Part shown: piece by piece, positions 4,201 to 54,517 of the stretch
Position numbering within the stretch: position 1 is the stretch's first letter
Layout: each line of letters opens with the position of its first letter
Assembly: GCF_004010195.1 (NCBI RefSeq)
Contig: NC_057724.1
Location: 64,878,293 to 64,936,350, forward strand
From: Chiloscyllium plagiosum
Taxonomy: Eukaryota
Length of the DNA stretch: 58,058 bases
Direction: 5' to 3'
The notes under the pieces: generated by a model
Seen by the model: only the letters and a program-made list of their open reading frames with translations
What the model was told of the DNA's origin: nothing
Database searches by the model: none
Made by a program: the position numbers and the translations under genes

Positions 4201-4447
4201 GGGACTTCAGGAGCAACCTTTTCAGGCAGAGGGTGTTACGAGTACGGAATGAGCTGCCAGAGGAAATGGTGGAGGCTGGTACAATTACAGCATTTAAAAG
4301 GCAGCTGGAAGGTATCTGAATACGAAGGGCTTGGAGGGATATGGGCCAAGTGCTGGCAAATGGGACTAGATTAGGTTAGGGTATCTGGTCGGCGTGAATA
4401 AGTTGGATGCAAGGGTCTGATTTCATGTTGTACATCTCTATGACTCT
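1290..4447 (+). mobile_element. Nested, decayed CR1-clade LINE ORF2 fragments with 3' ends
   Basis: Motifs PGNYRPVSLTS, DFSKAFDKAPH, GVPQGSV, LEYCVQFWSP. 3' tails (ACTCTATG-like) at ~3165 and ~4445. Frameshifts and stops throughout. Confidence 0.9.
2222..2825. other. Assembly gap
   Basis: Run of N inside a CR1 copy. Confidence 1.
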
Positions 4448-4449
4448 AT

Positions 4450-6430
4450 ATAGACAGCTGGGATCAAACAAATTCCTTGAGGAATATACACTTGAGAAGA
4501 AATCCAGGAGGACAAAAAAGGGACATGAGATAGCTTTGGCAGATAGACTAAGGAGAATCTAAAGATTCTACGAGTATTTAGGGGCAAAATTATAACTAAG
4601 GACAGAATAGGCCCTTTAAAGATCAATGAAGCCACCTACGTGTGGAACCTCAGGGGATTGGTGAGATCCTTAAATATTTTGTGTCAGTTTTTACTCTGAA
4701 GAAAGACATGGAAACTAAGAACTCAGAAAAATAGTGACATCTTGAAAAAAGTCCATGTAACAAAAGTGGACGTGTTTCAGACAAAGGTAGATACATCCCT
4801 GGGGCCTGATCAAGTATTTACCAGGACATCGTGGAAAGCTAAGGAAGAAATTGCAGGGCTACTAGCAGAGATATCTGTGTAATCGACAGCCACAGATGGG
4901 CTGCCACAAGACTGGAGGGTGGCTAATGTTGTGCTATTATTTAAGAAAGGCTGCAAGAAAAGCCAGGGACCTACAGACTGATAAGCCAGACAATCGTGGG
5001 TAATTTGCTGGAGGGGATTCTGAGGGTTAGGATTTACATGCATTTGGAAAGGCAAGGACTGATTAGGGAAAGTCAGCATAGTTTTATGAGTGGAAAATCA
5101 TGTCTCACAAACTTGATTGAGTTTTTTGAAGAGGTAACCAAGAAGATAGGTGAATGCAGAGCAATAGACATTGTCTACATGGACTTCAGCAAGTCCTTTG
5201 ACAGGGTTAGTAAGGTTAGATTACATGGGATCCAGGACAGTGAGCCAATTGGATACAAAATTGGCTTGAAGGTGGGAGACAGACTGTGGTGGTAGAGGAT
5301 TATTGTTCAGACTGGAGACCTGCCACCAGTTGTGCGCTATAAGGATCAGTGCTGGGATCCACAGTTGTTCATTTATATTCACAACCAATTCATTTCTATA
5401 AAAGGTATGGTTAGCAAGTTTGTGGATGACACCAAAATTGGTGGTATAGTGGACAGTGAAAGGTGGTTATTTAAGAGTACAACAGGATCTTTATCAGCTG
5501 GGTCAATGGGTTAAGGAATGGCAAGTGGAACTTAATTTAGATAAATGCGAGGTGTTGCATTTTGATAAGACAAGTGAAGGCAGGACTTACACAATTAATA
5601 GTAGGGCCCTGTGCAGTGGTGTTGAACAGAGAGATCTAGGGGTGCAGGTACAGAGTTCTTTGAAAGTAGTGTCACAGGTAGACAGAGTGAAGGAGGTAGT
5701 GCTTGGCATGCTTGCCTGCATCGGTCAGAGCACTGAGTACAGGAGTTAGGCTGTCATGTTATGACTGTACAGGACATTGGTAAGGCCACATTTGAAGTAT
5801 TGTATACAATTCTGGTTGCTCTGCTATAGAAAGGATGCTGTTAACCTGGAACAGGTGCAGACAAGATTTACAATGATGTTACTGGAGGGTTGGCATTATA
5901 GGGAGAGGCTAGGACGTTTTTCCTTGGAGTGTAGGAGGCTGAGGGGTGAACTTATATACAGGTACATGGATAAGGTGAATAGTCAAGGTCTTTTCACAAG
6001 AATGGGGGAATTCAAAATTAGAGGACGTAGATTGAAGGGGAGAGTGGAAAGATTTACCTTGGATCTGAGCAACTTTTTCCACAGAGGGTAGTGCACGTGT
6101 GGAATGAGCTGCAGATAATGGGAGTGATGGGTGGGGGTGGGGGCAGCAGGATGGTAAAGACAGACCTGATTGGTCAATGAGAGGAATGAATCTGGTTGGT
6201 GGCTGGGAGGAGTGGAAGGGACTGGGATGTGAGGCTATTTGAAGGAGGGTTACACCCAAAACATCAACTTCTCCACCTCCTGATGCTGCTTGGCTTGCTG
6301 TGTACTTCCAACCTCCTGACTGTCTATTTTAGATTCCTGCATCTGTGGTTTTGTTTTGTCTCTAACCGTGGACAAGTTGGGCTGAAGTTTCTGTTTCTGT
6401 GCTGTACGAATGCAGAAATATGACTCTACA
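4450..6430 (+). mobile_element. Decayed CR1-clade LINE, interrupted near its 3' end (~6120-6365) by a PLE-type fragment
   Basis: KSCLTNLIEFFEEVT, YMDFSKSFDRV, SKFVDDTKIGG, RPHLKYCIQFW. Confidence 0.85.
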
Positions 6431-7377: not shown

Positions 7378-7531
7378 TTTTGATGGCGTTGATGAGCGAG
7401 GTGCCATCCCTGATGACTTCCTTGATGAATTTGTTCGTCCTCTCCAGCTCCTGCTCGTAAGATTTGAGCCGCTCCCTGAAATCCGGACTGTCCAGGGAGC
7501 AATCACTGAACTCCAGCGGAGGGTGGCCCAT
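7378..7531 (-). CDS. OPHN1: Oligophrenin-1 (BAR-PH-RhoGAP, GRAF family), first coding exon; the gene continues leftwards out of the window
   Basis: [51 protein letters not shown] matches the OPHN1 N-terminus as I recall it ([37 protein letters not shown]). The 154-nt coding portion is followed by a GTGAGT donor at 7377-7372. Good Kozak context (AACATGG). Confidence 0.93.
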
Positions 7532-24238: not shown

Positions 24239-24343
24239 TTTATTGTGGACAAGGAGTGATGGGAATCAAATGGATAAGAGCCAAATGAAGCAGCGAATCT
24301 TCAGCAAATACACTGACAACATGTGAACTTGATAAATTTTATT
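24239..24343 (-). terminator. Candidate polyadenylation signals of the 947-aa gene
   Basis: AATAAA on the minus strand at 24338-24343 and 24239-24244, 350-450 nt after the stop, in repeat-free AT-rich sequence. Confidence 0.45.
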
Positions 24344-24690: not shown

Positions 24691-24815
24691 CTAGATATTG
24701 GATCCTTCTTCTGGAACAGGTACAAGATTCTCTTTCCCCTGCCGAAGAGCAGCATTTTCCTGCTCCAACATTGTGATCTTCTCCTCCAACTCTTTGTTTT
24801 TTCTCCGAAGCTTGG
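24691..24815 (-). CDS. Uncharacterised ~947-aa protein, last coding exon (coiled coil and stop)
   Basis: Acceptor TTTTTGTTGTTTCAG. Phase-1 entry gives AKLRRKNKELEEKITMLEQENAALRQGKENLVPVPEEGSNI*, with a clear heptad pattern. Confidence 0.8.
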
Positions 24816-25537
24816 CTGAAACAACAAAAACAGTTTAGGAATCAGCCTCAAGCCATAGAGATTACACTTCTTTCTCTAAAGATTTTAATACCATAGACTT
24901 GTATTCATCAGGTTGGGAATAGATCCTTATGCATCTACAAATAGATTGTTTTCAAGGGTTAGGCAGTGAATGATTGCCATGTTTAAATTATTGCCTGGAG
25001 AGGCTCTTTTATTGTAGTTTACTTCTAGTTTACTTCAGACAACGCAAACAGGCATTCACCATGACAGAATAAGATGTGTTATTTCTCATCACCAAGTTCC
25101 AGTTCAACACAAACACTGAAATAAACCTGCGAGTTGCCCACGTCACAATACAGATCATGATATCCAAAAAGGGAAAATAGAGTGATTACTTGGATTGCAA
25201 ATGGACCTTCAAGTTCACAAAGTATACTCAGCTATCATTCCAAAACTATCAAACAGGTAAAGATTGTTAGAACTGGGTCTGCTCTTCAATCCTAACCAGA
25301 TTTTTATAGTGTCCCTATCTCTGATCCAGGAGAACTCGGTTCAAGTCCCATCTGCTCCAGAGATGTATCATAGCATATCTGAACAGGTTGATTTGAAAAT
25401 CTCTCCCTTGTCAATCCTAAAAAAGGAAAGGCTTTTCCTATAAAACACAGAGGACTATATACACCCATTTGAAACAATAGCAAAGACTCTTTTACTAAAG
25501 CACTGGAGACATCTCAGATGAATCGATGAACTCTTAC

Positions 25538-25592
25538 CCACTTCAAGTTCCTGCTTGGATCTACATGTGGTTTCCAGACCTGTAGTTTTAAT
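25538..25592 (-). CDS. Uncharacterised ~947-aa protein, 55-nt exon
   Basis: Acceptor CCTTTGTCTTTGCAG, donor GTAAGA; IKTTGLETTCRSKQELEV; phase 0 in, phase 1 out. Confidence 0.78.
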
Positions 25593-26568
25593 CTGCAAAG
25601 ACAAAGGAATTTTGAATAAGGGAAGTCATGCATTTCACAATTTAAATACATTATAAAATGACACAATTACACAAATGCAAAAATAAGAAAACCAGATTTT
25701 ATGATATTCAGTGTGGAAATGTTACTGGACATGACAGCCAACAAGAAAGATGAGATAGGTATTTTCTGGATGAGGACACAAAGCATTCATTAATAATTAA
25801 AGGTTTGACTCAAGATTTGTGGCTTGGGTGCCAGTTGCTGCAGTTGAGGGTATGTTTGCCAAGCTGGGAAGTTGATTTGCAGACATTTCGTCTCCTGTCA
25901 AAGTGACATCTTCAGTGATTTGGAGCCTCCTGTGAAACACTATGTCTTCCGGAATTTATTTGGTTCTGTTCCTGCTGCTTCTGGTTGCCAGTTCCAGTTG
26001 CTCATTGTATTGGCCGGTATATTGGGTCTAGGTCAATGTACTTGTTGATGTCGTCCGTGCTTCTAGAAATTCTCTAGCTGTCCTCTATTTGGCTTGTCCT
26101 ATTTTCATTGTGTTGTCCCAGTTGAATTTGCAGTCCTTGTCATTTGTGCGTGTGGCTGTGAGGTACAGTTGCTCATGGTGTTTAGTGGCAAGTTGATGTT
26201 CGTGGATGCGGGTTGCAAGTTGTCTGCCTGTTTTCCCTATATAGTGTTGCGTGCAGTCTTTGCATGGCATCTTGTAAATTACGTTTGTCTTGCCAATAAT
26301 GGGTATAAGACCTTTTGTCCTGGTGAAGTGGTGTCTGAGCATGGCTGTCGGTTTATGGGCGGTCATGAATCCCAGTGGTCAGAGAGGTCTGGCTGTCAGA
26401 TTTGAGACACTTTTTTTGTACAAAAGGTAGCGTGGCTAGTGAGTTGGGTTGCTGGGTTGTTTGTCTGGTAGACACCTCCGGATGAAGTTGCAGGGATATC
26501 GATTCTTGGTAAATACTCTGTCGGGGTGTTCTTCTTCCCTTCATAGGTCAGGAGTGCTGCAGTGTGTT

Positions 26569-26779
26569 TTGGCTGAAAATGTGTTGCTGGAAAAGCACAG
26601 CAGGTCAGGCAGCATCCAGGGAACAGGAGAATCGACGTTTCGGGCATAAGCCCTTCTTCAGGAATGCTTATGCCCGAAACGTCGATTCTCCTGTTCCCTG
26701 GATGCTGCCTGACCTGCTGTGCTTTTCCAGCAACACATTTTCAGCTCTGATCTCCAGCATCTGCAGACCTCACTTTCTC
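26569..26779. mobile_element. Fold-back short PLE-derived insertion with hammerhead motif
   Basis: Arms 26572-26652 and 26666-26746 are reverse complements. TSD CTGCAGTGTGTT at 26557-26568 and 26780-26791. Confidence 0.85.
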
Positions 26780-27254
26780 CTGCAGTGTGTTATAGTCCGT
26801 TTGAACAGGGTTCTAATGCAGTTTCTCTTGTGTGTGTTTGGGTGGTTGCTGTTTTAGTTCAGGACCTGGTTGGTGTGTGTGTGGTTTTCCTGTACACTTA
26901 CGTGGTGCATTCACCATTCTGTATTCATTCTACCATTATATCTAGGAATGGGAGTTGAATGTTGGTTTCCTCCTCTCTTGTAAACCTGATCCCTGTGGGC
27001 ATAGGGTTGATCATCTGGTGTGTGCTCTTGATTTCTATTCTTTTAATAACAAAAGTGGTGTTCACGTATCTGATTCAGAGTTTGGATTGGATTTGTGGGA
27101 GGGCTGTTTGTTCCAGTCTTTGCATCACTAATCCTGCAATGAGCCCAGGGATGGGTGAGCCCATAGGTGTTCCATTGATCTATTCATATATTTGGTTGTT
27201 GAGTGTTAAGTGTGTTGTCAAGCACAGGTCTAGTAGTTTGAGTACATAGTCCTT

Positions 27255-27565
27255 TTTTTTTTAAAAGGCTCCCTACAGTGTGGAAACAGGCCCTTCGGCC
27301 CAACTGACTCTCAGAAGAGTAACCTCCCAGACCCATTTCCCTCTGACTAATGCACCTAAAATTATGGACAATTTAGCATGGCCAATTCGCCTGACCGGCA
27401 CATCTTTGGACTGTGGGAGGAAACTAGAGCACCCGGAGAAAATCTATGCAGACACGGGAAGAACGTGCAAACTCCACACAGACAGTCACCCGAGGCTGGA
27501 ATCGAACCTGGTACCCTGATGCTGCAAGGCTGCAGTGCTAACCACTGAGCCAACGTGCCACCCCA
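27255..27565 (-). mobile_element. tRNA-derived SINE
   Basis: Reverse complement of the 9131 family (GCAGTGCTAACCACTGAGCC, GGAATCGAACC). Confidence 0.87.
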
Positions 27566-28169
27566 CTTGTTGGTAGGTTCCCATCTTGTTGTCTGTTTGC
27601 CTGGGCCAACACAATAATCATAGGGACAAACCAAACAGAGGACAGCCAGAGAATTTCTATGATAATGGCACTCATCCACAGATGCCATCAACAAGCATAT
27701 AGACCTAGACACAATATACCAATCACTACCATGAACAACCGGAAGCAGCAGGAACAGAACTTAATAAATTCCAGAATTCACAGTACAAAAGTGTTTCATA
27801 GGAGGCTCCAAAGCACTGAAGATGTCATCTAGATAGGGGCAAAACATCTGCAAATCAACTTCCCAGCTTGGTGAACATACCCACAACTACGACAATTCAT
27901 TAATAATAATAAAAAGCACAGTAAATTCTGCTACACAAGAATTATCCTTAGTTAATTAAGTATGGAAAGTAGATTAACCAAATAGCACAAGTAACAATGA
28001 TAGGACAATGTATGTTGCAGCTGTGGAATATCAGAGCATTTGGATGCTCAGGAAATCCAGGACAAATCATCTGCAGAATGTTTCAGCAGTTAGAGGAATT
28101 CCTGATCAAGATTTCTGAAAGCTGAACTGCAGACACTCCACAACACATAAAAAGGGTAGATCTATCTGT

Positions 28170-31100
28170 CTAAAACAGTCACATCTCAGAGGGTCATGTG
28201 GTTTTTTTAAGCAATGAAGGGACAGAGGATGTGATCGTGAGTGAGGTAGGTAAAGAGACGAGAACACTGTAGGAAGAGCCTCAGACTTCACAACTGTCAA
28301 ATTGTTGAGGTACTCTTAGACAGTGTGGATAAGAGCAAAGCCTGCAAGGTAGATGAGCAGACTCACCATAGCACCATGGTAAAAGAAGCCATTGATTCAT
28401 GTGGAGTAAAAGGAATGTTATAGTTGTGGAGGACAGTATAGTGAGGATGACTGATCGTGCACATGTCTAGAAAGCTGTGATATCTGCCTGATGCCAGGAT
28501 TCAGGGCATCATCTTAGGATGGAGAGGATCCAGTCATCATAGTTCACAAAGGTAACAATGACATAGGTAGAATATAGAAAGAGATTCTGTCGAGTCAGTA
28601 AGAGGAGCAAGGCACCAAAGTAAGCAGAACTTCAAAAGATAATGATCTCTGAGACAGTGGGATTGTACCATTAGGACAATCTATACCCCAACCATGCTGG
28701 GACTGATGTACTTGCAAATTATATCACTAGGTAAACAGCAGGTTTTAAACTAAATAGTATAGGGAAGAGGATCAAATTCAGGAAGGTGTGATAAAGCAAA
28801 GACTAGAGAGGACTGTTAGTGTTAGTAATTAGTGTTATTGCTCGTCTTAGTCTGGTTACAAGATAATAAAAAAAAACAAACAAAACACAAAAAGTTCTAT
28901 CTGAATGCACACAGGATCTGAAATAAACAGGTGATTATTTATTTCAGTTTGCACTAATAGCCATGAGAGAAATGGTTACATAATGACACCAGAAAATACA
29001 GGATATTTGGAAAAGACAGCTAACTAGGAAAGGTGAAGGGGTAGTGAGGAAAGTCTGACTGTGCTAGGTTTGTATCAGTTGGACTTAAGAAGTGACTCAG
29101 GTTATGCCTTCTGGTCCTAGATTCTCCCACAAGGGAGATAAACCTCTCCATATCCATCCTGTCAAGTCCACTACAAATTTTTCAAGTTTCAATAATGGTC
29201 ACCTCTCAATTTTTAAACTTTGATGAGAATAAGAACAACCTACTCTATCTCTCCTCTTTGAAAATCCCTCCAGACCAACCTAGTGAACATTCTCTTGACT
29301 GGCTCCAATGCCAGCATATTCTTTCTAGATAAAGAAAACAAAACAGTTCACAGTATTCTAGGTGAAGTCTATCTTGTGCTTTATATGGTTTTAGCAAGAT
29401 CTCCCTACTATAGATCATTCCCTTTGAAATAATGGCCATTATTCCATTTACTGCTACCTGCCAAATTTGGATGCTGACTCTTCATGATTAATGTAGCATG
29501 GCCCTAACTCCGACCATGCCACAGCTTTTCATAGATTTTATCCATTTAAATAATATTCTCTATAGTTTCTGCCAAAGTGCATTACATCACATTTTCCCTC
29601 ATAGTATTCCACCTGCCACATTTTTACCTCCTCATTTAACTGGTCTCAATCCTGCTCTAGACTCGGTCATCCTCACCACTTATCTTCCTACCCATTTGTC
29701 ATCTGCAAACTTGGCAAAGTACATTCAGTTCTACCACCCAAGTCACTCATACATATTGTAAATAACTGGGCTCCAGCACTGAAAATAACCCCCACTTCTC
29801 CCAACTGTGTTTATTACTTAGCCATTCTTATCTCCATGCTAATATATTACCTCCAACACTATGAGGTCTTGTCTTAAGCAGCCTAATGTGAGGTACTCGG
29901 TCAAATGCCTTCTGGAAATCTATTACATTACATCCACTGCTTCCCCTTTATCTATCCCATTTGTAATCTCCCAAAGAATTCTAATAAAATTTGTCAGGCA
30001 TGATTTCTTCTTCATGCTAACTCTGCCCAATTACTCTATGTCATGCATTTCTAAATGTTCTAAATGCATCCTTTATAACAAACTAACATTTTTCCAAAAA
30101 CGTGTATTATGCCAACTTACTCACCATTTTTGTCTCCTTCCTATTTTGAATAAAATTGGTCTTCAGCCCCAAATGTTTTCCCAATATTTTATCTCTAGCA
30201 AAAAGTATTATATTAAAATTTCCTCTCCAACTTTGCCCCTTGATTTAGTATTTTTGGAATGCTATTAGTCATATCTGAAGTGAAGATGGATGCAGAGAAT
30301 TTATTCAGCTTCATTGCCATTTCCTCGTTACCATTATCATTTTTTTCAAGCCTCATTCACTAGGGGCCCTATGTTCTTTCCTGCCTTTTTCTTTCTTTAT
30401 AATGGTGGAGAATCTATTACCATTTGAAAATTTGTGTGTCATTTTCCATTTTTGACAAAGAATTTAAGGTGTTTTGATTTTAAAACACTTTGAAAAATTG
30501 TTTCCTTATTTTTGCTGCATTGCACATTTTTTATATGTGTTTAAAAGAAGCCCGTGCTGTTCATCTTAGTATTACTTCAAAGTTTATTTGAGTTTTCTTC
30601 AGAAACAACCCTTCACAATCCTCTGGCTTTCCTTTTTTTTTTGACACTTTGTACGTTTTCTTTCAATTTGATGCTATCCTTAGTTTCATTGGTTAATTTA
30701 TCCTCTTCCGAGAATCTTTCTTTCTCAGTGGGATATATTTCTGTTATCAGCATCTGCCATTGTTTCCCAACCATCTTTGCTAAACTTCTTTCCCAGCTCA
30801 CACTAGCTAGCTCTGCACTCAACCATTTGCAATTAACCTTACTTAATTTTAGCACTGTTATTTTCAACCTAGTTTCTCCCTCTGAAACTGAATGCTAAAT
30901 TCTACTATGCTTTCACCATAGCTTTCTGTGATCTTTTATTAAGAGTTTATTTATGAAACTAACCTCATTACATATCACCATATCTAAAATAATCTCATCC
31001 TTTGTTCAATTCATTACATATTATCTGAAGAAATGGTTTCAAATGTGCTATGAATTCTTCCTATGGCTATCTCTGCCAATTTGACTTTCCCAACCTTTAT

Positions 31101-31420
31101 GAAGATTAAAGTCAACCATAAGATATTGCCTCTTTTTACATTCCTTCATTATCACCCAATTTATTCTCTGTCCTACCATACAGTAAGTATTAGAGGCCAA
31201 TAGACTTATTCTACCATGGTCATCTTCCTCAGTACATTTTAAGCTCTATATGAATTCTACATCCTCCAATTCTAAATCATCTCTTGGTATCATACTTATT
31301 CCATCTACACTAATAAACTACCCAATTATCCTTTGCTTCCCATTAGTCATTGAAAACCCCTGAAAATTTAGTTTGCAGCTTTGATTTCTTGCAATTATGT
31401 CTCTTTAGTGGTTACAAGAT
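28170..31420. mobile_element. Old CR1/L2-type LINE remnants (plus strand ~28170-29080, minus strand ~29095-31420)
   Basis: Minus-strand RLHLEYCELF, KITVLKLSKVN...LASVSWERSL; heavily decayed. Confidence 0.6.
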
Positions 31421-31964
31421 CATTTTTTAAAGAAATTCAGTTTTAAGAGTCACTGGCTGGCCAGCATTAATTGCCTGTCCCTGCCTGTCCTTCAGAAGCT
31501 GGTGATGAGTTGAGTTGTCGTCTTGAACTGCTGCAATATACATGTCTGTAGGTAGACCCACAATGTTCTGAGGAATAAATTCCAGGATTTTGGACCAGCC
31601 TGATAGATAATCTCGAATTGTTCTTAACACTACTTAAATTCAAGCATGGATCATTTTTTAAAACAATTTTATCCACCTTTTGACTTTATTTACTGCTGCT
31701 TTAATATTTGTGCACTCAGGATAGAAAAATCTTAAATAGTTGCAGTAATCTACTCAGAAAAGTTAGTCATCCTGAATACAGAACTGAAAAAGTAAACAGA
31801 TTAAGAAGAGACTTATCAGTTTTAAATTTTATAACTTCAGTCTTCAGGGAAAGAAACCATCTAGTCATTATCATGGTCATTGGAGTCTCCAGTGTTGGCT
31901 ACAACATTTGTCATGTTAAAGTGGGACTAAAGTCATATTGTGATTCTGCACAAGGCAACCTCAG

Positions 31965-32408
31965 AAATGATTTAAAAGATGTTGCCAGGTTTGGAAGATT
32001 TGAGCAAAGGGAGACGCTGACTAGGCTGGGGCTATCAGAGCCATCAGAGGTTTATGAAATCATGAGGGGCATTGATAGGTAAGTAGACAAGGTTTTTTCC
32101 CTGGGGTGGGAGAGTCTAGAATAAGAGGGCATAGGTTTATGGTGAGAGGGGAAAAATTTAAACAGGATCTAAGGGGCAATGTTTTCACACAGAGTGTATG
32201 CATGTATGGAATGAGCTGCCAGAAGAAGTGGTGGAGGTTGGTACAATTACAACATTTAAAAAGCATCTGGATAGGTATATGAATTGGAAGGGTTTAAGAG
32301 AGATATTGGCCAATTACTGGCAAATGGGACTAGATTAGTTTAGGATATCTGGTCAGCATTTACGAGTTGGACTGAAGGGTCTGTTTCTGTGCTGTATTGT
32401 ATGACTGT
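31965..32408 (+). mobile_element. CR1-clade 3' fragment
   Basis: EVYEIMRGIDR; AACTTTT/GGAATGAGCTGCCAG block; TATGACTGTAT tail. Confidence 0.85.
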
Positions 32409-32596
32409 ATTGGCCACTTTGCAGCATAAATGAAGTTGGTACATTCTATATGAGTAAAAACTGAATGTGTTTTTAAAAATTGAGAGGGGAAAGAAAATTG
32501 CTTTCTCAGCCATTAGTTCCAAAATCCACTTTTAGCTTAATGTACTATCATATGGCTAATTTTGACTTTTAGTTCTGACATTTGACTTTCTCGCAC

Positions 32597-32673
32597 CTTC
32601 ATCCCCATCTGCTGCTTACAGTTGCCCAAACGTGGTTTCATCTCACATCTTGGATATTTGGCAGTGATGTCTC
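32597..32673 (-). CDS. Uncharacterised ~947-aa protein, 77-nt exon
   Basis: Acceptor TTTTTCTTATTACAG, donor AAG|GTGCGA; GDITAKYPRCEMKPRLGNCKQQMGMK; phase 1 in, phase 0 out. An alternative GTAAGC donor 23 nt earlier would break the frame with the next exon. Confidence 0.68.
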
Positions 32674-32886
32674 CTGTAATAAGAAAAAGCAGTATGCTTT
32701 GACAGAATGGATTTAAAAAAGGAACGGCAATGCAAATAGTTATAATAATACATTACAAATAAGTCAGATTGTTTCTGGTCAATCAGTTGAAGTTAAATCA
32801 CAATATTCGATATTCTGCATCAAGACTTTGTCTTAAAATATTGGTGTGTTCAAGAAACACTGGTTGTTTGGATGAACATACACCCT

Positions 32887-33115
32887 GGAGGAGAAAGTGA
32901 GGTCTGCAGATGCTGGAGATCAAAGTTGAAACTTTATTGCTGGAACAGCACAGCAGGTCAGGCAGCATCCAGGGAACAGGAGATTCGACGTTTCGGGCAC
33001 AGGCCCTTCTTCAGGAATGATTCCTGAAGAAGGGCCTGTGCCCGAAACGTCGAATCTCCTGTTCCCTGGATGCTGCCTGACCTGCTGTGCTGTTCCAGCA
33101 ATAAAGTTTCAACAC
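32887..33115. mobile_element. Fold-back short PLE-derived insertion with intact hammerhead cores on both strands
   Basis: Near-perfect inverted repeat centred on 33019. TSD TGAACATACACCCT at 32873-32886 and 33116-33129. Confidence 0.88.
33019..33056 (+). ncRNA. Minimal type I hammerhead ribozyme motif (mirror copy on the minus strand at 32982-33018)
   Basis: GATTC-CTGAAGA-A-GGGC(CTGT)GCCC-GAAAC-GTC-GAATC: stem I GATTC/GAATC, CUGANGA and GAAA cores, 4-bp stem II, palindromic ACGT in place of stem III, GUC site. Confidence 0.78.
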
Positions 33116-34722
33116 TGAACATACACCCTACCTCCTCAAACAGGAGATGGCACAAGTTAAATAAAAACTGAAATAACTGCAGATGTTGTAAATCAGAAAC
33201 AAAAACAGAAATTGCTGGAAAAGCTCATTAGGTCTGGCAGCATCTGTGAAGAGAAATCAAAGTTAAAGTTACGGATCAAGTGACCCTTCTTCAGCACATG
33301 GGTTAGTTTGACCTCAAATTAGGGGTTTACACTGTTGTGTCACAAATAGATTGGAACCAATAGGCAAATGGCAGGCCAATGCAAGAAGCAAAAAAATACA
33401 AACGGCCTTGGATTTCTTTGGGGACAAATGAATAGACGGACCTAGGTGAATGGGGAAAATTACTTGCAAATGGTTTTCAATATCGGAAAACGTGAGGACA
33501 TCTGCTTTTGGTCTAAAGAAGGTAGTCCAGATAGTTTGCAATGGTGAGAAGCAAGATGCAGCAAAGACTCAAAGAGACTTGGAGTTTAGGTACATAGATC
33601 AGAAAATGTCAATGTTAGCTATGATATTTAGTCAACAAAAATATACGAGGAACAGAAGTCATGCTTGAAGCTATTCTAATCCCTTATTAATCAAAACTTG
33701 GAGAACTGAGCACAGTTTTAAAGAGAAGAGGATAAGCTGCCTTTATGGAATTCAGTGTAGATTCACAAAAATAACCAAGACTTGGTGTCATGCTGGATGA
33801 GAGATCACACAAATGAGAATTATATTGCTTGGAATTCACAAGGTTAAAAAGATGATTTTGATCAAAGTCAAGGTAATGGACTGGGTAAATTGAAAGAAAA
33901 CATTTCTACTGGTTGGGGATAGTTTGCAAACTAGAACTAGAACTAGAGTTATCAAAAGTGAAATTAAGAACCTCCTTTATACAGAAGGTAGGAAAGGTTT
34001 GGAATTTTCGACAAACTGCAACTGAATCTAGATTCATAGTTTTGTTAGCTAAAAAGGCACAAGGAACACGAGGCAAAGGCAGGTATATGGAGAGTTAAGT
34101 CACAGGTCAGCCATGGCATCACTGAAGATGGGACAGGCTCAAGGGGCTAGATGAACCCTTCTGTCCAACGATGGGACTTCGAATATAGATATCAATAAAA
34201 GGGTCAGGCTCATATACAGAAAAAATGTCTTTTGAATAGTTTAGAATTTGCAACAGTAAGAAGTAGGAATTAAAGGGCTTTTTGAAATCCCATCGGATAA
34301 ATATTAATATTTTAGGTTGAATGGTCGATAAAAAGTACAAAGAAAATTGGAATTGTTGATGACAAATTTAAAATGTCATGTGTCACCAACCATATTATTG
34401 AGCAATAAAAATTAATCAAAAACAATTATTTCCCATGAAATGAAGCTGAAATTCAATTTTAAAATTAAAGTTAAAAACACATATACCTGAATAAGATTAT
34501 AAATACCTATTATGACATGACATCAAAATTTGCATATTTGTGATCCAAAACAAGTTCAGAGATATTAAATTGTTCCTTAATGGTGGCTCCTCAAAATCCA
34601 GAATACACGCTGCAGGTGCAAGTGTAAACAGAATATGAAGTACTTAGCAGCTCATAAGTGTTCATTGCCTCCTTCCCTTTCATTGTGCGTTAACGCATCT
34701 TTTTTCAGCATGCCATATTTAC

Positions 34723-34870
34723 CTCTACTAGAGGCAGAAGCCTGTTTGAAATTTGCTTTTGTTTCTTGCACAATGAATTTTGACAAGTTCAGTGAAGACC
34801 TTTTGTTTAGTCCAGGTATCTTTGAGATACTTTTAGCCAAAGGTTGATTAGATTTGGCTTTAGGAGTCAT
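34723..34870 (-). CDS. Uncharacterised ~947-aa protein, 148-nt exon with SKIP motif
   Basis: Acceptor CTGCTCTCTTTCAG, donor GAG|GTAAAT; MTPKAKSNQPLAKSISKIPGLNKRSSLNLSKF...ASSR; phase 0 in, phase 1 out. Confidence 0.8.
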
Positions 34871-35186
34871 CTGAAAGAGAGCAGAGTACTTATAAACAAA
34901 GATTTTCTCATTGCAACAACCATTCCAATGAGAGCAGAGATACCGTACAAAGGGTCTACCAGCACATCATGCTGGGTCATATCTATTCAAACAACTTGTT
35001 AAAAATGGAATACTAAAGTAGATTAGAGGATAGTGCAGTTGTGCAAATGGGATACAACTTCTGGCAATTGGTGACCATCCCAAAGATTAAAATTCACATA
35101 ATAAAGGAGCCTGTAAGAACAAATGGCCTGTTTTGCAAGAACAGTTATAAAGTATGGCAGATGCTGGAAATCAGAACAAAGCTACT

Positions 35187-35610
35187 GAATTGGATTGAAT
35201 TGAATTGAATTGAATTGAATTTATTGTCACGTGTACCAAGGCACAGTGAAAAGCTTTGTCTTGCAAGCAATATAGGCAGATCACATAGTTAAGTAGCATA
35301 GACAAGTAAATAAATAGGTCAACAGTGGCAAAAACAAAAACACAGGTACAGGCAAATGTTAAGAGTTTGAGTCCATTCAGTATTCTAACAATAGGGTAGA
35401 AACTGTTACGAAACCGGCTGGTGTGTGTGTTCAGGCTTCTGTACCTTCTCCCCAATGGTAGAGGCGGTAGAAAAACATTGCCAGGGTGGGATGGATCTTT
35501 GAGAATGCTGGCGGCCTTTCCTGGACAGTGGGCCTGGTAGATGGATTCTATAGATGGGAGGTTGGCCTTTGTGATTGTCCAGGCCAAGTTCACCACTCCC
35601 TGTAATTGTT
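35187..35610 (-). mobile_element. Rex1/Babar-like LINE 3' fragment ending in an (AATTC)n microsatellite
   Basis: LPSIESIY...KAASILKDPSHPG...LPLGRRYRSL..TSRFRNSFYP; (GAATT)n at 35187-35221. Confidence 0.75.
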
Positions 35611-35619
35611 TCAGGAACT

Positions 35620-36620
35620 CTTGAAGGTTCACAAGATTTGTTCCTAGGATGGGAGGGATGAAGACTGATTGGGTAAACTGGGCTTGTATTCTTAGTTTTA
35701 AAGACAGGGAGGTGGTCTCATTGAAATGATATACTTAAAAAGATATAGAGGGTTGATGAATGCAAGACATTTCCCCTGGTTGGGGAATTTCAAATCAGGG
35801 GGCACAATTTAAAGTAACAAGATCCCTCTAAGGTTCGCAATGAGGAGAAAGCATTTTACTCAGTGGGTTATGAATCTTTCAAACTCTCTATCACAGAGGG
35901 CTTTGGAAGTACAATCTTGGAGCATGTTTAAAGGTAGAGATTGAAAGGTGTCCGATTACCAATGGCATACAGGGCTATGGGGTAGCAATCGGTAAAAGTC
36001 ATTGATATGTTTGCTCAGTCATGAGCATTTTGAATAGATGGGTAGGCTCAACAGGGTGAATGTAATACTCCTGTTCATTTCTTCCTATTTCACCAGTCAT
36101 CTGCGTCCAATCCTGGTCACTGTGTTTTAGGAAGGGTATTATTAAGTTAGATAGGGTTCAAAAAAGATTTATCAGGATGTTTCCAGGAATGGGGAGTTTG
36201 AATTATAAGGAGAAGCTAGATAAGCTGGAACATTTTTCACTCGAGCATAGGCGGTTAAGGAGTGGCCTTATAGGGGTTCATAAAATCAGGTGTATGGGTA
36301 AGTAAGGTAGATAAGGTAGTTGTCTTTTCCCTAGGCAGGGGATTTCAAGACTAGGATGCATATTTTTAAGGTGAGAGGAGAATTTTTTTTAAAAAGACAG
36401 GAGGGGCATTTTTTTTTGTTTTATACAGAGTGGTTTGGGTAGAATGCACTTCCAGAGGAAGTGGTGGATGTGGGTACAGTTACAACACTTAAAAAAAGAT
36501 ATTTAGAAAAATATATGAATAAGAAATGTTTGGAGGAATATGGGCCAAGAGCAGGCAGGTGGGACTAATTTAGTTTGGGATTATGGTCAGCGTGGATTGT
36601 TTCCATGCTGTATGATTATC
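35620..36620 (+). mobile_element. Two CR1/L2-type 3' fragments
   Basis: GTCCAATCCTGGTCAC, GGGTTCAAAAAAGATTTATCAGGATG, CCATGCTGTATGA tail. Confidence 0.75.
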
Positions 36621-36830
36621 AATAACTGTCAGTACTTCTAAGTCTGGGAGAACACAAAAACTAGATACTTAAGATTTCCAGTTGGGAGAAAAAGAAAATC
36701 AGTCTGAGCTCACAGGAGACCAGCCAGTCTTGCATCAAGTAAAGCACTGCAATGTTTGTCCACCATATTACACACAATTTCCTCCAATTGAAAGCAGAAT
36801 AAATAAGACGGTTATAAAAATATAACTTAC

Positions 36831-39269
36831 ATTGGCATTGACTCCAATGTGGCATGATGAAAGCTTGTTATTTCCTGCAGTTTGCCCAGACCCTATTCCA
36901 CTGCTCAGCTTTTTTGAAACCTGATGAGGTTTTGGAAGGCACGTCTTTGAAACACCAACTGATTGCGTTGAAGGCTTTCTTCCTCTGTCCACAACAGAGC
37001 AACCTACTTTGCAGATTTGAACAGGAGGTATAATGTCTTTTTGCATTCCAGATTTACGTACTTGACTAACACTTTTCCTCCTGGCTCCTGGGAGATCAAC
37101 ACATTTCAAGGAATTCTCAGTTCTGATTTTGGCTTGCCTTAATTGCTGTCCAGATCTTGGTACATTTGAATTTTTTCCACTACTAGTTTCAATGGCAACA
37201 GTGCCAGAACTTCTGTGTTCATCCAGGGACTCTTCTGCTCCAACATGCATGTCATCCTGAAGTATGGCGGAAGAAACCAGGTTAGATTGGTCAAGTTGTT
37301 GATATTCTAGAAAACTTCGCCTCCTTTTGATATATGGAGTAGAAATATAGTTGGGAGCCCATTCTGAACTCACTATGTCATGAATCACGTCTGTCTGTTC
37401 ACAAGTAATTTGTTCTCCATGTTGGGAGGAGTTTCTTAAATGTAGGCTTCTTTCTAAACCATAAACCCCTTTACGTAATCCTACAGAACAGCTGAAATCA
37501 CAATCACCACCTCCATTTGCTTCAACTGATCTTTTTTCAATACCTATAGAACTATCCGCTTTCCCCAAATCCAGAATCAAATTTGAGTTACCACTGTTTC
37601 CACCTGTCTCCACTTGGTCTAACATTGATCCATAATCCATAACACATTGTCTCCCAAGTTTAAAGTTCTCAGATGTCAGTCTGACTTCATTCGAGCCTCC
37701 TGGTGATAGAGGCACCTGGCAATGGGGCAAGTTTGTTATTTTATTGGCATTTTCCAAACTGTTATCATGCTTTGATGCATCAAATGTAGCATTGCAGTCA
37801 AAGACAGTTACAATTCTACGTAACTGCTCTTTGTCGTTTGTTGATTGAAGTAACTTGCATCCAGACAAAGTATAGGCTTTGCTAGCTGTCTCAAAACTAT
37901 CTTCATATTTTGCTGCAAACATTGCATTTTTCCAGTCATCCACAGTCACAGTGCAATGAAATGGTACCATTACGTTCGTTGATGGAGGCATCTTGCAATG
38001 AAAGGAGCTAGTTACATTGAGGTCACATCCCTCATCATCTTCATATAGAAAGTTAAAAGTTCTATTTCTAAAATTATCCACAATTGTGGTACCATTTAAC
38101 TGCACTGTGCAATTAAATGAGTTAGTTACCTTCTGGTCATTTCTAATGTGGTTTTCATGCTTTGATAAATTAAGGGCTACATTTACATGATCTGTCACAG
38201 GTATTGTTTCATTCAACTGGATTAGCTCTACTTTAGATGAGGATAGCATACAGTTAAATACAATGGGCAGCTTGTTCTGCATATAACTGGAAGAGACAAC
38301 ATGCTTAAGTACACCAACTTCCCAGTCATTAAGGTCACTTTGCAACATCGTTTCATTTAACTGGATCAAGTTTTCAGAAGGGAACACGGGCAGAGCTCCA
38401 GCCTCAGTAAAGTCATTTGTTTTAACAGGTGGATCTTCAGTTTCCATTTCCGAGAGAATTTGTTGACAGTTGATACTGTTTTCCTCTTGCAATTCTGAAG
38501 TGGTGCCATCTTGTGGCAATTTTGCTGGGGAGGCAATTGAACAGTTCAACGGTATAAGTTCATTATTTATCATGGAAACATTAGTCACAGAAGCTGGATT
38601 TATTGCATCAACTATATGGAGATGACATAGCTCGCTTTTATCATTTAACTTAGTAGCTATACGTATACATTCTTCTGCAATAGCACTGGTGAATAAGTGT
38701 GACAAGTTACTTGATTCCATAATGGATAGTGAGCAACAGGTTAATTGTATTTGCTCCTGTTCAGAGGTACTTTTAGAAACATTAATGTCAAGCAAGGTTT
38801 GTTGCACTATCACATCCACATCTTTTGTTTTTAAAGGAATTTGACCTTTATATTTGCTGTCAGAACTTGGAAGACAATATGTTGCATTCAAAGAATTTTC
38901 TTTTGGCCGTGTATCCACTTTGAATTTGGTATCCAATTTTCGGGTAGAATTTAGACTGGAAGAGCCTGTGCTGAATTGCCCACTTTTGACAATGGAGGCA
39001 CTTGGTTGTCTTAGCATTCGTTTTTCAAGAGGTTTCAAGTTGTTGGTAGCAACTGTCTGTTTCCCCAATTCAGGCTGTGGCTTTTTTGAGCAACCTTGTG
39101 CTGGACCTTTTCTGGTCAGGAGTGAACATCTGCGTTGTGATGTTGCTTCACTATTCGTCTTAGCAGCTGGGGGAGCAACAGGATTGCTTGGGGTTCTAAT
39201 GGAAACTGAGGGTCTAGTGGAAATACACACTGAAGTTCGACACTTGGGTGCAGCTAATGATGACTTCAT
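36831..39269 (-). CDS. Uncharacterised ~947-aa protein, large exon (813 codons, S/T/K/N-rich, probably disordered)
   Basis: 2.5-kb uninterrupted, repeat-free ORF with no transposon motifs. First in-frame ATG after an upstream TGA (39345-39347) is at 39269 (MKSSLAAPK). Donor AAT|GTAAGT at 36830. Likely acceptor GGTTTCAG before 39380. The true N-terminus is uncertain. Confidence 0.85.
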
Positions 39270-39477
39270 TGAACACAGTCTGGATTGTGGTGATGTTTTC
39301 AGCACAGGAGGTGGGAAAAAGAGGAAATCAAAAGCAGTAGCTGATCAACAAATACCACTTAAAACAAAACACGCAGGCATCTGAAACCACAAGGCAAATA
39401 CTTTAAAAGGATGCAAAAACTGAAAGAACTCTGGATGTTGTAAATCAGAGACAAAAACAGAAATTGCTGGAAAAGCT

Positions 39478-49126: not shown

Positions 49127-51471
49127 CCAATTTTGGATCCTGGATGCCATGTGTTCTTAGTTTCATAATCATCTGCCATGAGAGATCTTGTCAAAAGTTT
49201 TACTAAAGTCCATGCAGACTACATCAACTGCACTACATAGAACATAGAACAGTACAGGCCGTTTGGCCTTGGATGTTGTGCAGACTTTTTATCCTACATG
49301 AAGACCAAACTAACCAACATCACCCTCAGTTTACTGTCATCATGTGCCTATCCAAGAGTCAGTTAAATGTCCCTAATATATTTGACTCTACTACCACTGC
49401 TGGCATGCATTCCACACACCCACCACTCTCTGCGTAAAGAACACACCTTCTGACATCTAGCTTAAACCTTTCTCCAATCACCTTAAAATTATGCCCCCTT
49501 GTGATAACCATTTCTGCCCAGGGGAAAATGTCTCTGACTGTTCACTCTATCAAGTCACATCTCATTCCTTCTTTACTCCAATGAGAAAATCCCTAGCTCC
49601 CTCAACTTTTCTTCATAAGACATTCCCTCCACTCCAGGCAGCATCCTGGTAAATCTCCCTTGCTTCCACATCTTTCCAGACCAGAACTGAACACCATATT
49701 CCAAGCGTGTCTAACCAGAGCTTTATAAAGCTGCAGCATAACCTCACAGCTCTTAAACTCAATTCCCATGGTCATAAAAGCCAACACACCATATGCCTTC
49801 TTAACAACTCTATCAACTTGGGTGGCAACTTTGAGAGATCTATGGACATGACCCCAAGATTCCTTATTTATAAAAATCACAAAGAGCAGAGATTCTAGAG
49901 GAATACCACTGGTAACAGAATTCCAGGCTGAATACTTTCCATCTCCTCCCACCCTCGGTATTCTATGGGCCAGCCAATTCTGTATTCAGACAGCCAAATT
50001 TCCCTGTATCCCATGCCTTCTTACTTTCTGAATGAGCCGACCATGGGGAACCTTATCAAGCTCCTTGCTAAATCCACATACACCACATCACCTGCTCTAT
50101 CTTCATCAATGTGTTTTGTCACATCCTCAAAGAATTCATTAAGGTTTGTGAGGCATGACCTGTCCCTCTCAAAGCCATGCTAACTATCTGTAATCAAACT
50201 ATGGTTTTCCAAGTAATCATAAATCCTGTCTCTCAGAATACTCTCCAATAATTTGCCCACAACAGATGCAAGACTGACTGGGTCTATAATTCCCAGGATT
50301 ATCCGTATCCCCTTTCTTGAACAAGGAAATAATACTTACCACCCTCCAGTCATCTGGCACTACTCCAGTGGACAATGAGGACATAAAGATCATCGCCAAA
50401 GGCACAGCAAGCTCTTCCCTCACTACCTATAGTAACCTTTGGTGTATTCAGTCTGGTCCAGGGGACTTATCGATCCCTATGTCTTTCAAACTTTTCAGCA
50501 CATCCTCCTTCTTAACATCAACCTGTTTGAGCATATCAGTCTGTTTCATGCTGTCCTCCCAAATGTTAAAGTCCAGCTCAGTAGTGAATACTGAAGCAAA
50601 GTATTAATTAAGGACCTCCCCTCCCTCCTCCGACTCCAGGCACATGTTCCCTCCACTATCCTTGATCGGCCCTACCTTCATGCTAGTAAACCTCTAAATT
50701 TAGAATGCCTTAGGATTTTCCTTAATCCTACCCACTAAAGTTTTTCATGCCCCCTTCCAGTTCTTAAGTCCATTCTTCAGCTTCTTTCTGGTGACCTTGT
50801 AACTGTGGAGAGCTCTGTCTGATCCTTGCCTCTTCAGCCTTAAGTAAGTTTCCTTCTTCCTCTTGACTAGGTGTTCCACATCTCTTGTCACCAAAGGTTC
50901 CTTTACCCTGCCATCCCTTTCTTGCCTCATGGGACAAACCTATCCAGTAGTATCAGCAAGTGCTCCCGAAAGAGCCTCCACATTTCGGTCATGCATTTCG
51001 TGGAGGACATCCGTTCCCAATTTAATCACCCCAGTTCCTGCCTAATAGCATTGTAATTCCTCCTCCACCAGTTAAATACTTTCCCATACTGTCCACTCCT
51101 ATCCGTTTCCATGACTATAGTAAAGGTCAGGGAGTTGTGAGCACGATCACCAAAATGCTCTCTGCCAAGAGATCTGGCACCTGTCCTGGCTCATTGCCAA
51201 ACACCAAATCCAATATGGCCTACACTTTAATAGAACATAGAACATTACAGCGCATTACAGGCCCATCGGCCCTCAATGTAGCGCCGACTTGTCATACCAA
51301 TCTGAAGCCCATCTAACCTACACTATTCCATGTATGTCCATATGCTTGTCCAATGGCGACTTCAATATACTTAAAGTTGCCGAATCTACTACCGTTGCAG
51401 GCAAAGCATTCCATACCCTTACTACTCCCCGAGTAAAGAAACTACCTCTGACATCTGTCCTATATCTATCA

Positions 51472-51930
51472 CTCAGGTAAAAACAATGACTGCAGATGCT
51501 GGAAACCAGATTCTGGATTAGTGGTGCTGGAAAAGCACAGCTGTTCAGGCAGCATCTGAGGAGCAGTAAAATCGACGTTTCGGGCAAAAGCCCTTCATCA
51601 GGAATACAGGCAGAGATACCTGAAGGGTGGAGAGATAAATGAGAGGAGCTGTAGAGAGAGGAGGAAAACTTCTTCAAGGCCGGCATCCTTGCAAGAGGAT
51701 TCGCAGTAGGGTTAAAAATCAACTAGGTAAAAACAGATGCTGGAAACCAGATTCTGGATTAGTGGTGCTGGAAAAGCACAGCATTTCAGGCAGCTCCTCT
51801 CATTTATCTCTCCACCCTTCAAGCACTCTGCCTGTATTCTTGATGAAGGGCTTTTGCCCGAAACATCGATTTTCCTGCTCCTCGGATGCTGCCTGAACTG
51901 CTGTGCTTTTCCAGCACCACTAATCCAGAA
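51472..51930. mobile_element. PLE-derived insertion with direct and inverted copies of the terminal repeat, inside a CR1
   Basis: CAGATGCTGGAAACCAGATTCTGGATTAGTGGTGCTGGAAAAGCACAG occurs at 51493 and 51735. 51793-51930 is inverted. Intact hammerhead on the minus strand at ~51570-51605. Flanks ATATCTATCA / ATATCAATCA. Confidence 0.8.
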
Positions 51931-53002
51931 TATATCAATCAGCCCTCAATTTAAAGCTATGCCCCCTCGCCGTCACCATTCTTGGAAAAAGGCTCTCCCT
52001 GTCCATCCTATCTAACCCTCTGATTATCTTATATGCCTCTATTAAGTCACCTCTCAACCTTCTTCTCTCTAACGATAACAGCCTCAAGCCCCTCAGCCTT
52101 TCCTCGTAAGACCTTCCTTCCATACCAGACAACATCCTAGTAAATCTCCTCTGCACCCTTTCTAAAGCTTCCACATCCTTCATATACCAGAACTGTACAC
52201 AATACTCCAAGTGCGGCCACACCAGAGTTTTGTACAGCTACAGCATAACCTCATGGTTCCGGAACTCAATCCCTCTATTAATAAAAGCTAAAACACTGTA
52301 TGCCTTCTTAACAATCCTGTCAACCCGGGTGGCAACTTTCAAGGATCGGTGTACCTGGACACCAAGATCTCTCTGCTCATCTATACTACCAAGAATCTTA
52401 CCATTAGCCCAGTACTTTGCATTCCGGTTACTCTGACCAAAGTGAATCACCTCACACTTGTCTGCATTAAACTCCATGTGCCACCTCTCAGCCCAGCTTA
52501 TCTATGTCTCTCTGTAACCTACAACATCCTTCGTCACCATCCACAACTCCACCGACCTTAGTGTCATCTGCAAATTTACTAACCCGCCCTTCTACGCCCT
52601 CACTTTAGTTGACCTATCTACATATTGACTCAGGAATCCTTCCTGGACACACCTGACAAAACCTGCTGCACCCAAACTATTTGAACTAACAACGTTCCAA
52701 TCAATATTAGGAAAGTTAAAGTCACCCATGACAACAATCCTGTTACTTCTGCACCTTTCCAAAACCTGCCTGCCAAGGTGCTCCTCTGTGTCTCTGTTGC
52801 TATTGGGGAGTCTGTAGAAAACTCCCAATTAAGTGACTGCTCCTTTACTGTTTCTGACTTCCACACATACTGTCTCTGTAAACAAACCCTTTTTGACCAC
52901 CAGCTTTCTTAAACCAGCTTTTGACCACCGCATCTTCATAAACACAGTAACCATTTGAGGTCAGGATTGACTAAAGCTAGATTTTCACGTGAAAGTTTTA
53001 GA

Positions 53003-53528
53003 CTTCTGGTCTCCTTCCTATTGGAAAGATTTTGTGAAACTTGAAAGGGTTCAGAAAAGATTTACAAGGATGTTGCCAGGGTTGGAGGATTTGAGCTATA
53101 GGGAGAGGCTGAACAGGCTGGGGCTGTTTTCCCTGGAGCCTCAGAGGTTGAGGGGTGACTTTATAGAGGTTTACAAAATCATGAGAGGCATGGATAAGAT
53201 AAATAGACAAAGTCTTCTCCCTAAGGTCAGGGAGTCCAGAACTAAAGGACATAAGTTTATGGTTAGAGGGGAAAAATATAAAAGAGACCTAAGGGGCAAC
53301 TTTTTCACACAGAGGGTGGTACGTTTGTGGAATAAGCTGCCAGAGGAAGTAGTGGAGGCTAGTACAATTGCAACATTTAAAAAGCATTTGGATGGGTATA
53401 TGAATAGGAAGGGTTGGGAAGGATATGAGCCGGGTGCTGGCAGGTGGGACTAGATTGGGTTGGGATATCTGGTCAACATGGACGGGTTGGTCCGAAGGGT
53501 CTGTTTCCATGCTGTACATCTCTATGAC
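53003..53528 (+). mobile_element. Young CR1-clade 3' fragment
   Basis: Open frame FWSPSYWKDFVKLERVQKRFTRMLPG...FKKHLDGYMNRKG. Confidence 0.9.
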
Positions 53529-54172: not shown

Positions 54173-54300
54173 CGTCCCGACGTGGGCCTGTCAACGTCCT
54201 TCAAGTCCAAGCAATTGAAGCTTAAATCTCAGGCAGATTACAAACCGCTGCCATCTCCACTCTGAGGGAGAGGGCTAACCGCTATCCGTTTCCATAGCGA
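54173..54300 (-). other. Candidate non-coding first exon of the 947-aa gene
   Basis: Donor ACG|GTGAGC at 54172 on the minus strand at the edge of the CpG island; only short uORFs. The link to the 39380 acceptor is inferred. Confidence 0.5.
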
Positions 54301-54500
54301 CCGACGTTGGCGATTGGGAATTTGAAATCGGTGACCGTTGGGGGGCGGCTCTCGCGAGATCTGCATTGAATGGGCGGGGCTCAGATTTAAATGGTCGCGG
54401 TGTCCACCCGTCTCGCCCGTTTTTGCTGCTTTTGAGTTCGCAGTGACGGTTAGCCCCTGGTGTAGGCCTCACCTGCTCGCCGGGCTTGAAATTACCTAGC
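54280..54500. promoter_or_regulatory. CpG-island promoter, probably bidirectional
   Basis: High CpG density. ATTGG 54313, TTTGAA 54321, CCGTTG 54335, GC boxes 54342 and 54372, TCTCGCGAGA 54350-54359, TTTAAA 54386, CTTGAA 54485. Confidence 0.8.
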
Positions 54501-54506
54501 AGAGCC

Positions 54507-54517
54507 ATGTTGGGAAG
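54507..54517 (+). CDS. Candidate 11-nt first coding exon (MLG-R/S) of an unidentified plus-strand gene
   Basis: GCCATG followed by AAG|GTGAGT consensus donor at the right edge of the CpG island. No further exon found in the window. Confidence 0.4.

Follow-up and report, generated by a model that had tools for sequence, protein, structure and literature searches.

What kind of protein is encoded by a long, apparently anonymous gene in the genome of the bamboo shark Chiloscyllium plagiosum, and what might it do? The gene lies on the minus strand of a 58,058-nucleotide (nt) stretch of contig NC_057724.1 (positions 64,878,293 to 64,936,350, assembly GCF_004010195.1), hereafter called the window, and its five coding exons specify 947 amino acids (aa). 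It is a real gene, annotated in RefSeq as LOC122557394, and it is functionally unstudied: a literature lookup with six identifiers of the family's genes found no paper. Judged by its motifs, the product is probably a dimeric microtubule plus-end-tracking protein (+TIP) that binds end-binding (EB) proteins and is controlled by CDK1 and Plk1.

The five-exon structure put forward in the original prediction stands. All four introns are of the GT-AG type, with phases 0/1/0/1, and the 2844 nt form 948 codons including a single stop.

36831..39279, minus strand: giant exon, with the ATG at 39269; its coding part (39269-36831, 2439 nt) encodes aa 1-813.
34723..34870, minus strand: coding exon 2, 148 nt, which carries SKIP.
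32597..32673, minus strand: coding exon 3, 77 nt.
25538..25592, minus strand: coding exon 4, 55 nt.
24691..24815, minus strand: last coding exon, 125 nt, with the coil and the stop codon.

Exon 3 was the sole candidate between exons 2 and 4 to pass the splice filter, and AATAAA occurs 3' of the last coding exon at 24343 and 24244. The joined product equals, letter for letter, RefSeq XP_043560992.1 (LOC122557394 isoform X2, 'uncharacterized', Chiloscyllium plagiosum); the gene had been described as unrecognised, and RefSeq holds at least three isoforms of it. RNA support for the exon junctions is indirect, and repeat rows swamped the individual joints. Parts of the giant and last exons are matched by contigs of run X1 with 0-2 differences, while depth is 0 in two unique intron bins; the splice sites 24815 and 36831 are the exact end points of two contigs of run X2, which leave 21 and 30 letters over (the RNA nature of X1, X2 and X4 is only a guess, and X2 comes from another organism). 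Run X17 has low depth over the last exon, and its orientation is wholly that expected for minus-strand RNA.

The suggestion that the protein binds EB proteins centres on one short motif encoded by the second coding exon.

34811..34825, minus strand: SKIPG, a predicted EB-binding SxIP motif (aa 829-833).

Conservation of this motif had been named as a check on the idea, and an SxIP indeed stands at the same column in 22 of the 23 rows of alignment A2, the sole miss being a protein that ends before the site. The site varies only within the consensus (SKIP, TKIP, TQIP, TRIP, SRIP), whereas mean conservation over columns is 0.57, and its tail is mostly G-hydrophobic-K-K/R; S/T-K/R/Q-I-P with a hydrophobic and basic tail is kept from bamboo shark to chimaera. 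Such a tail is needed for affinity, according to PMC12695022, and SKIP has it, together with the disordered (here predicted), basic, Ser-rich context that the same source describes; a basic, Ser-rich setting had been claimed for the motif. The proposed second variant, SKTCLPKP, is not supported: it fits the consensus only through TCLP, which is found in two of the 23 rows, most others having M, L or I at that place, and the conserved part of the site is LPKP. Relatives commonly have an extra SxLP before GARRK, which the window lineage lacks.

The chain that carries this motif has basic ends and an acidic middle, as had been stated, with net charges of +20 (aa 1-150), -34 (151-700) and +30 (701-900). 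It is predicted to be largely disordered apart from a short helix and a terminal coil, and AlphaFold2 places helices only at residues 195-210 and 898-935.

38646..38684, minus strand: conserved short helix AIAEECIRIATKL (aa 196-208).
24739..25556, minus strand: terminal coiled coil (aa about 898-935), to which both of the last two exons contribute.

The coil is a single 38-aa helix with Leu at the d positions of its heptads and Val/Asn/Ile/Asn at the a positions, and it is predicted to form a parallel, in-register dimer. The homodimer model scored 0.37 against 0.01 for the best control, with a contact agreement between runs of at least 82% and a predicted local distance difference test (pLDDT) value of at least 69. 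Pfam returned only sub-threshold coil matches, and none of five helix segments matched any of its families; a GTSE1-like reading of helix 195-210 was rejected, its score lying within the shuffle range. Both the coil and the wider +TIP architecture of the original prediction are supported, the latter by SxIP conservation, predicted disorder and the predicted parallel dimer. A second GT stands 4 nt upstream of the exon-4 donor (a GTGGGT double donor, window 25538-25541), because of which RefSeq isoforms X1 and X3 are frameshifted and coil-less. This double donor is kept both here and in the neighbouring paralogue described below (L003, about 4950), and splicing at the upstream GT eliminates the coil.

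The best-conserved element of the family is a different one, which the original prediction had missed.

37335..37361, minus strand: W-A-P-N-Y-I-S-T-P, a predicted extended Plk1 polo-box docking site (aa 637-645).

The pattern W-x-P-x-x-x-S-T-P occurs in 24 of 26 proteins (the remaining two are fragments) and marks the top-conserved 5-mer window. S-pT-P is the core recognised by the polo-box (PMC7803464), and in the CENP-U peptide FDPPLHSpTA, Phe71 enters a cryptic pocket of that domain (PMC12183085). When the motifs are compared, the shark site has the same register as CENP-U, with an aromatic residue at -7 and Pro at -5 (PMC12183085). The S-T-P core is common to the Plk1 receptors CENP-U/PBIP1, BUB1 and astrin, a likeness at the level of motifs with no shared domain, and astrin also resembles the shark protein in having, within a disordered arm, Plk1 sites close to its docking STP. 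When the docking region was searched against PDB sequences, no meaningful match emerged.

The prominence of this site bears on a different reading, in which the protein is mainly a nuclear or kinetochore Plk1 receptor of the CENP-U or BUB1 kind and SKIP is secondary. The docking motif is not only the most conserved element but also the sole clear match to a distant chimaera protein, P0029, that itself lacks SKIP, and most relatives have an exon with KRP...SPKRxK, likely a nuclear localisation signal, as well as a V-S-x-I-x-E-E motif that loosely resembles a PP2A-B56 site. However, SxIP is kept in every orthologue that covers its site, and the window copy has neither the KRP exon nor the B56-like motif; we hold this reading to be decidedly unlikely. 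The window copy is a trimmed duplicate, without the KRP exon and one upstream SxLP that most relatives keep, and no remnant of the exon was found in the window. Directly after the S-T-P site, only the window lineage has IKRRRS (window 37314-37331, minus strand), which might stand in for the lost basic exon as a nuclear signal. As for P0029 (Callorhinchus LOC103189208), it shares the W-x-P-x-x-x-S-T-P region and VIQLNET and has no SKIP or terminal coil; neither protein nor pattern queries found a counterpart in the bamboo-shark genome, the protein search having had a stricter first look.

Upstream of the docking site, the acidic middle contains an array of candidate kinase sites.

37782..38369, minus strand: degenerate 40-47-aa repeats (LIQLNET...NxTF) with N-x-T-hydrophobic sites (aa 301-496).

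The number of repeats ranges from 3 to 14 per species, with three anchors here and up to 14 in Carcharodon, and none were found by the anchor pattern in the chimaera protein. Of the N-x-T sites, 6 of 10 in the window protein and 31 of 33 in Carcharodon have a hydrophobic residue next, compared with 9/49 and 14/65 for other threonines. This arrangement fits the Plk1 consensus (PMC7837267), and in combination with the conserved polo-box-type site it lends sequence-based support to the mitotic role that had been offered as a possibility. N-glycosylation was rejected as the cause of the N-x-T sites, since no signal or membrane segment was found in any of the four proteins checked (maximum hydropathy 1.13 here) and since the residue at +1 has a hydrophobic bias. 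The same repeats could instead be taken for clathrin boxes, which would make the protein a GTSE1-like clathrin adaptor of the spindle: LIQL is motif E of GTSE1 (PMC7041688) and two conserved copies are present here. Yet the clathrin consensus ends in D/E, where the window copy and most relatives have the N that starts the N-x-T site, and GTSE1 homology is lacking, which leaves this the least probable of the alternatives.

If the motifs act as their counterparts do, the terminal coil would dimerise the protein and SKIP would bind EB proteins at the ends of growing microtubules; each dimer, with its pair of SKIP motifs, would then track tips avidly, and its basic ends would assist on the lattice. 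Phosphorylation of T644 by CDK1 would prime the S-T-P site, to which the polo-box would bind in mitosis with W637 in its hydrophobic pocket. Plk1 docked in this way could phosphorylate the N-x-T-hydrophobic array in the acidic middle, and multisite phosphorylation of the repeats may switch the binding or the location of the protein during division.

The 5' end of the gene shows that it is one half of a duplicate pair. The giant exon turns out to be internal: it has an acceptor at 39279, and an upstream exon, also missed earlier, ends at 54173, 14.9 kb away.

54173..54205, minus strand: 3' part of the upstream first exon, with donor GTGAGC; it aligns with the neighbour's first exon.
54507..54517, plus strand: coding end (MLG...) of the first exon of LOC122557393, the neighbouring paralogue, whose first ATG is at 54507; its remaining exons lie beyond the window (G000:C15:64946087-64967202).
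54173..54517, unstranded: CpG-rich stretch of 345 bp between the first-exon donors of the two paralogues.

Joined to the 39279 acceptor, the 54173 exon reads TSGRLCSMKSS, as against MSGRLCSMKSS in a C. punctatum protein (P0017). Because an ACG at 54183 occupies the position at which the C. punctatum protein starts MSG, the upstream exon is likely, from its sequence, to be 5' untranslated region in this assembly. The two genes are arranged head to head with their donors 345 bp apart, and the intervening stretch is the sole repeat-free CpG-rich one from 39300 to the window end and likely serves as a shared promoter. It contains four hexamers (54200, 54321, 54386 and 54485) of the CHR (cell cycle genes homology region) type against 0.55 expected, a palindrome, TCTCGCGAGA, at 54350, and one X-box-like element at 54288, against 0.008 expected. 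CTTGAA, 16 nt before the start-codon position, is kept in both first exons, which match overall at only 31 of 68 bases. Late cell-cycle genes have TTTGAA, TTTAAA and CTTGAA as functional CHRs (PMC4176359). At L006:1061-1288 (G000:C99957) lies a processed retro-fragment of the neighbouring paralogue in which two exons are fused at their splice junction, and further broken fragments are found on C38, C17 and C30.

These features of the pair could also fit a scaffold of centrosomes or basal bodies in ciliated or sperm cells that uses the same EB and Plk1 motifs and acts mainly at sites other than spindle tips. The promoter has the X-box-like element, the processed mRNA copy of the neighbour implies that this paralogue is expressed in the germline, and Plk1 acts at centrosomes as well (PMC7803464). 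Against this, the promoter evidence is one motif chosen post hoc beside which CHR-type hexamers are also present, and the Pfam matches include no known centriolar domain, so that we see this reading as unlikely, if worth keeping in sight.

The duplication raises the further question of whether the window copy is simply decaying, with the neighbour alone functional. In a 19-sequence tree the two bamboo-shark copies join within the carpet sharks at a support of 0.968, the whale and zebra sharks grouping with the neighbour, and the window copy has the longer branch (0.44 versus about 0.35); it has also lost an exon and the upstream ATG, and its repeats are degenerate. However, an open frame with 94% identity is present in two other proteins of Hemiscylliidae, SKIP, S-T-P and the coil are all retained, and contigs from putative RNA runs lie over its exons. 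Decay is a very improbable explanation.

Several points weigh against an EB-binding, Plk1-controlled +TIP. The functional claims all depend on short motifs in the sequence. S/T-x-I/L-P counts are not above chance in the window protein (3 versus 1.1 expected, p=0.097, 2000 shuffles), nor are they enriched in any single protein tested (p=0.097, 0.30 and 0.69), so the case for SxIP rests on conservation. The dN/dS ratio (nonsynonymous to synonymous substitution rates) between the two bamboo-shark copies is 0.66 over 785 codons, which indicates that most of the chain is weakly constrained. The pLDDT values below 50 at 882 of 947 residues stem from a shallow alignment of 23 sequences. Of solved eukaryotic homodimers, 17 of 29 reached the dimer mark, and none of 30 monomers did, but among eukaryotic cases without an older solved relative only one of seven reached it; the pass may reflect memory of similar coils, and the calibration does not extend to disordered chains. 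In some annotated isoforms, of the bamboo shark and of other species, the coil is lost by frameshift. The promoter motifs were picked post hoc, after the sequence had been viewed, canonical TTTGAA by itself is not enriched (1 versus 0.25 expected, p=0.23), and among human gene pairs arranged head to head, CHRs drove just one partner (PMC4176359).

The family has so far been seen only in cartilaginous fishes (sharks, rays and chimaeras). Word-based searches returned 16, 15 and 19 proteins out of 8000, 8000 and 7999 candidates scored, every one of them from a shark or a ray, and a profile search of 1.84 billion representatives gave 12 matches at E<=0.001, namely 11 from named cartilaginous fishes and one unnamed 67-aa record. 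Skates and an electric ray came in through the profile search, as did the chimaera orthologue LOC103179184 and the distant chimaera paralogue LOC103189208. Neither type of search found a homologue in bony vertebrates, both being length-limited or insensitive on fast-evolving disordered proteins, so that absence is not proven. The top ESM Atlas cluster, with scores of 0.90 and 0.88, is labelled 'hypothetical protein' and has 98 members (Chordata); it may correspond to this very family. CXorf49 (DUF4641) was rejected as a relative, as the Atlas lead reached only 0.76-0.77 and PF15483 is not among the 20 families matched by 16 members.

No homology to a named family was detected, and the remote relationships to GTSE1 and MTUS that had been considered possible are not supported. 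A shark exon that is likely MTUS1, judged by its position near PCM1 and a motif, is a 745-codon open exon about 280 kb from the C-terminal exons of PCM1 (L073:2492-4726, plus strand, G000:C1). It resembles the present gene in being a giant early exon with an acidic N/D-x-T-hydrophobic region, S-T-P and a basic P-K-P region in the same order, and both families have a C-terminal coil. Homology is nevertheless not supported, as the profile comparison with this MTUS1 exon gave a probability of 0.3% with scores below those of shuffles, and a pattern of the MTUS coil motif gave one chance match only. The MTUS1/MTUS2/CCDC69 family is defined by a long C-terminal coiled-coil region (PMC11621681), whereas the shark coil is short. 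GTSE1 and PSRC1 share with the shark protein a mostly disordered chain, SxLP motifs, CDK sites and LIQL-like segments (PMC3517537, PMC7041688), but PF15259 (GTSE1_N) was found in none of 16 members at E<=1, and the two PF15259 genes of this genome lie elsewhere (C26, C23) and score against the shark family within the shuffle range. The closest likeness in layout is to +TIPs of the SxIP class (CCSER2, GTSE1, the MACF1 tail), which also have a disordered chain with SxIP in a basic, Ser-rich context; the shark protein adds the repeat array and the extended polo-box site. CCSER2 combines a coiled coil with two SxIP motifs (PMC10486078), its coil being central and that of the shark protein short and C-terminal. 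The CCSER name did not occur among the family search results, a comparison of names only.

Around the pair, one flank is a BAR-domain RhoGAP gene, with its first coding exon at window about 7380-7530 (minus strand) and further exons in L014-L018, of which downstream ones match Pfam BAR_3; we take it to be OPHN1 from its N-terminus. The right flank has a STEEP1 (CXorf56) exon (L029:5665-5778, minus strand) and a gene for an LDLa-LRR-7TM receptor of the RXFP type (L038-L044, plus strand). Since human STEEP1 is far from OPHN1, the order OPHN1-pair-STEEP1 may be an older one. Neither a search for the Yip1 family nor ten peptide motifs located YIPF6 nearby, and the literature entries listed for local synteny held nothing relevant. 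The window is dense in reverse-transcriptase fragments of the long interspersed nuclear element type and in short interspersed repeats (e.g., 1800-6100, 26000-27700 and 49600-53450), and about half of it matches other loci examined.

To conclude, SxIP, polo-box dock and short coil are all of known kinds and no new mechanism is claimed; an anonymous RefSeq family becomes a testable hypothesis with three point-mutable motifs. A fuller picture, offered tentatively, is that of a mitotic or meiotic scaffold family, peculiar to cartilaginous fishes, in which a CENP-U-style dock links Plk1 to EB tip tracking, with a Plk1-site array that varies from 3 to 14 units, a carpet-shark split into head-to-head copies with and without the nuclear signal on one small cell-cycle promoter, and a 4-nt splice shift that toggles dimerisation. 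If the main hypothesis is right, cartilaginous fishes would have a spindle regulator that bony vertebrates have lost or altered beyond recognition, and the family would provide a natural series for how a +TIP is tuned by its count of Plk1 sites and a case for how duplicates on one promoter divide their work.

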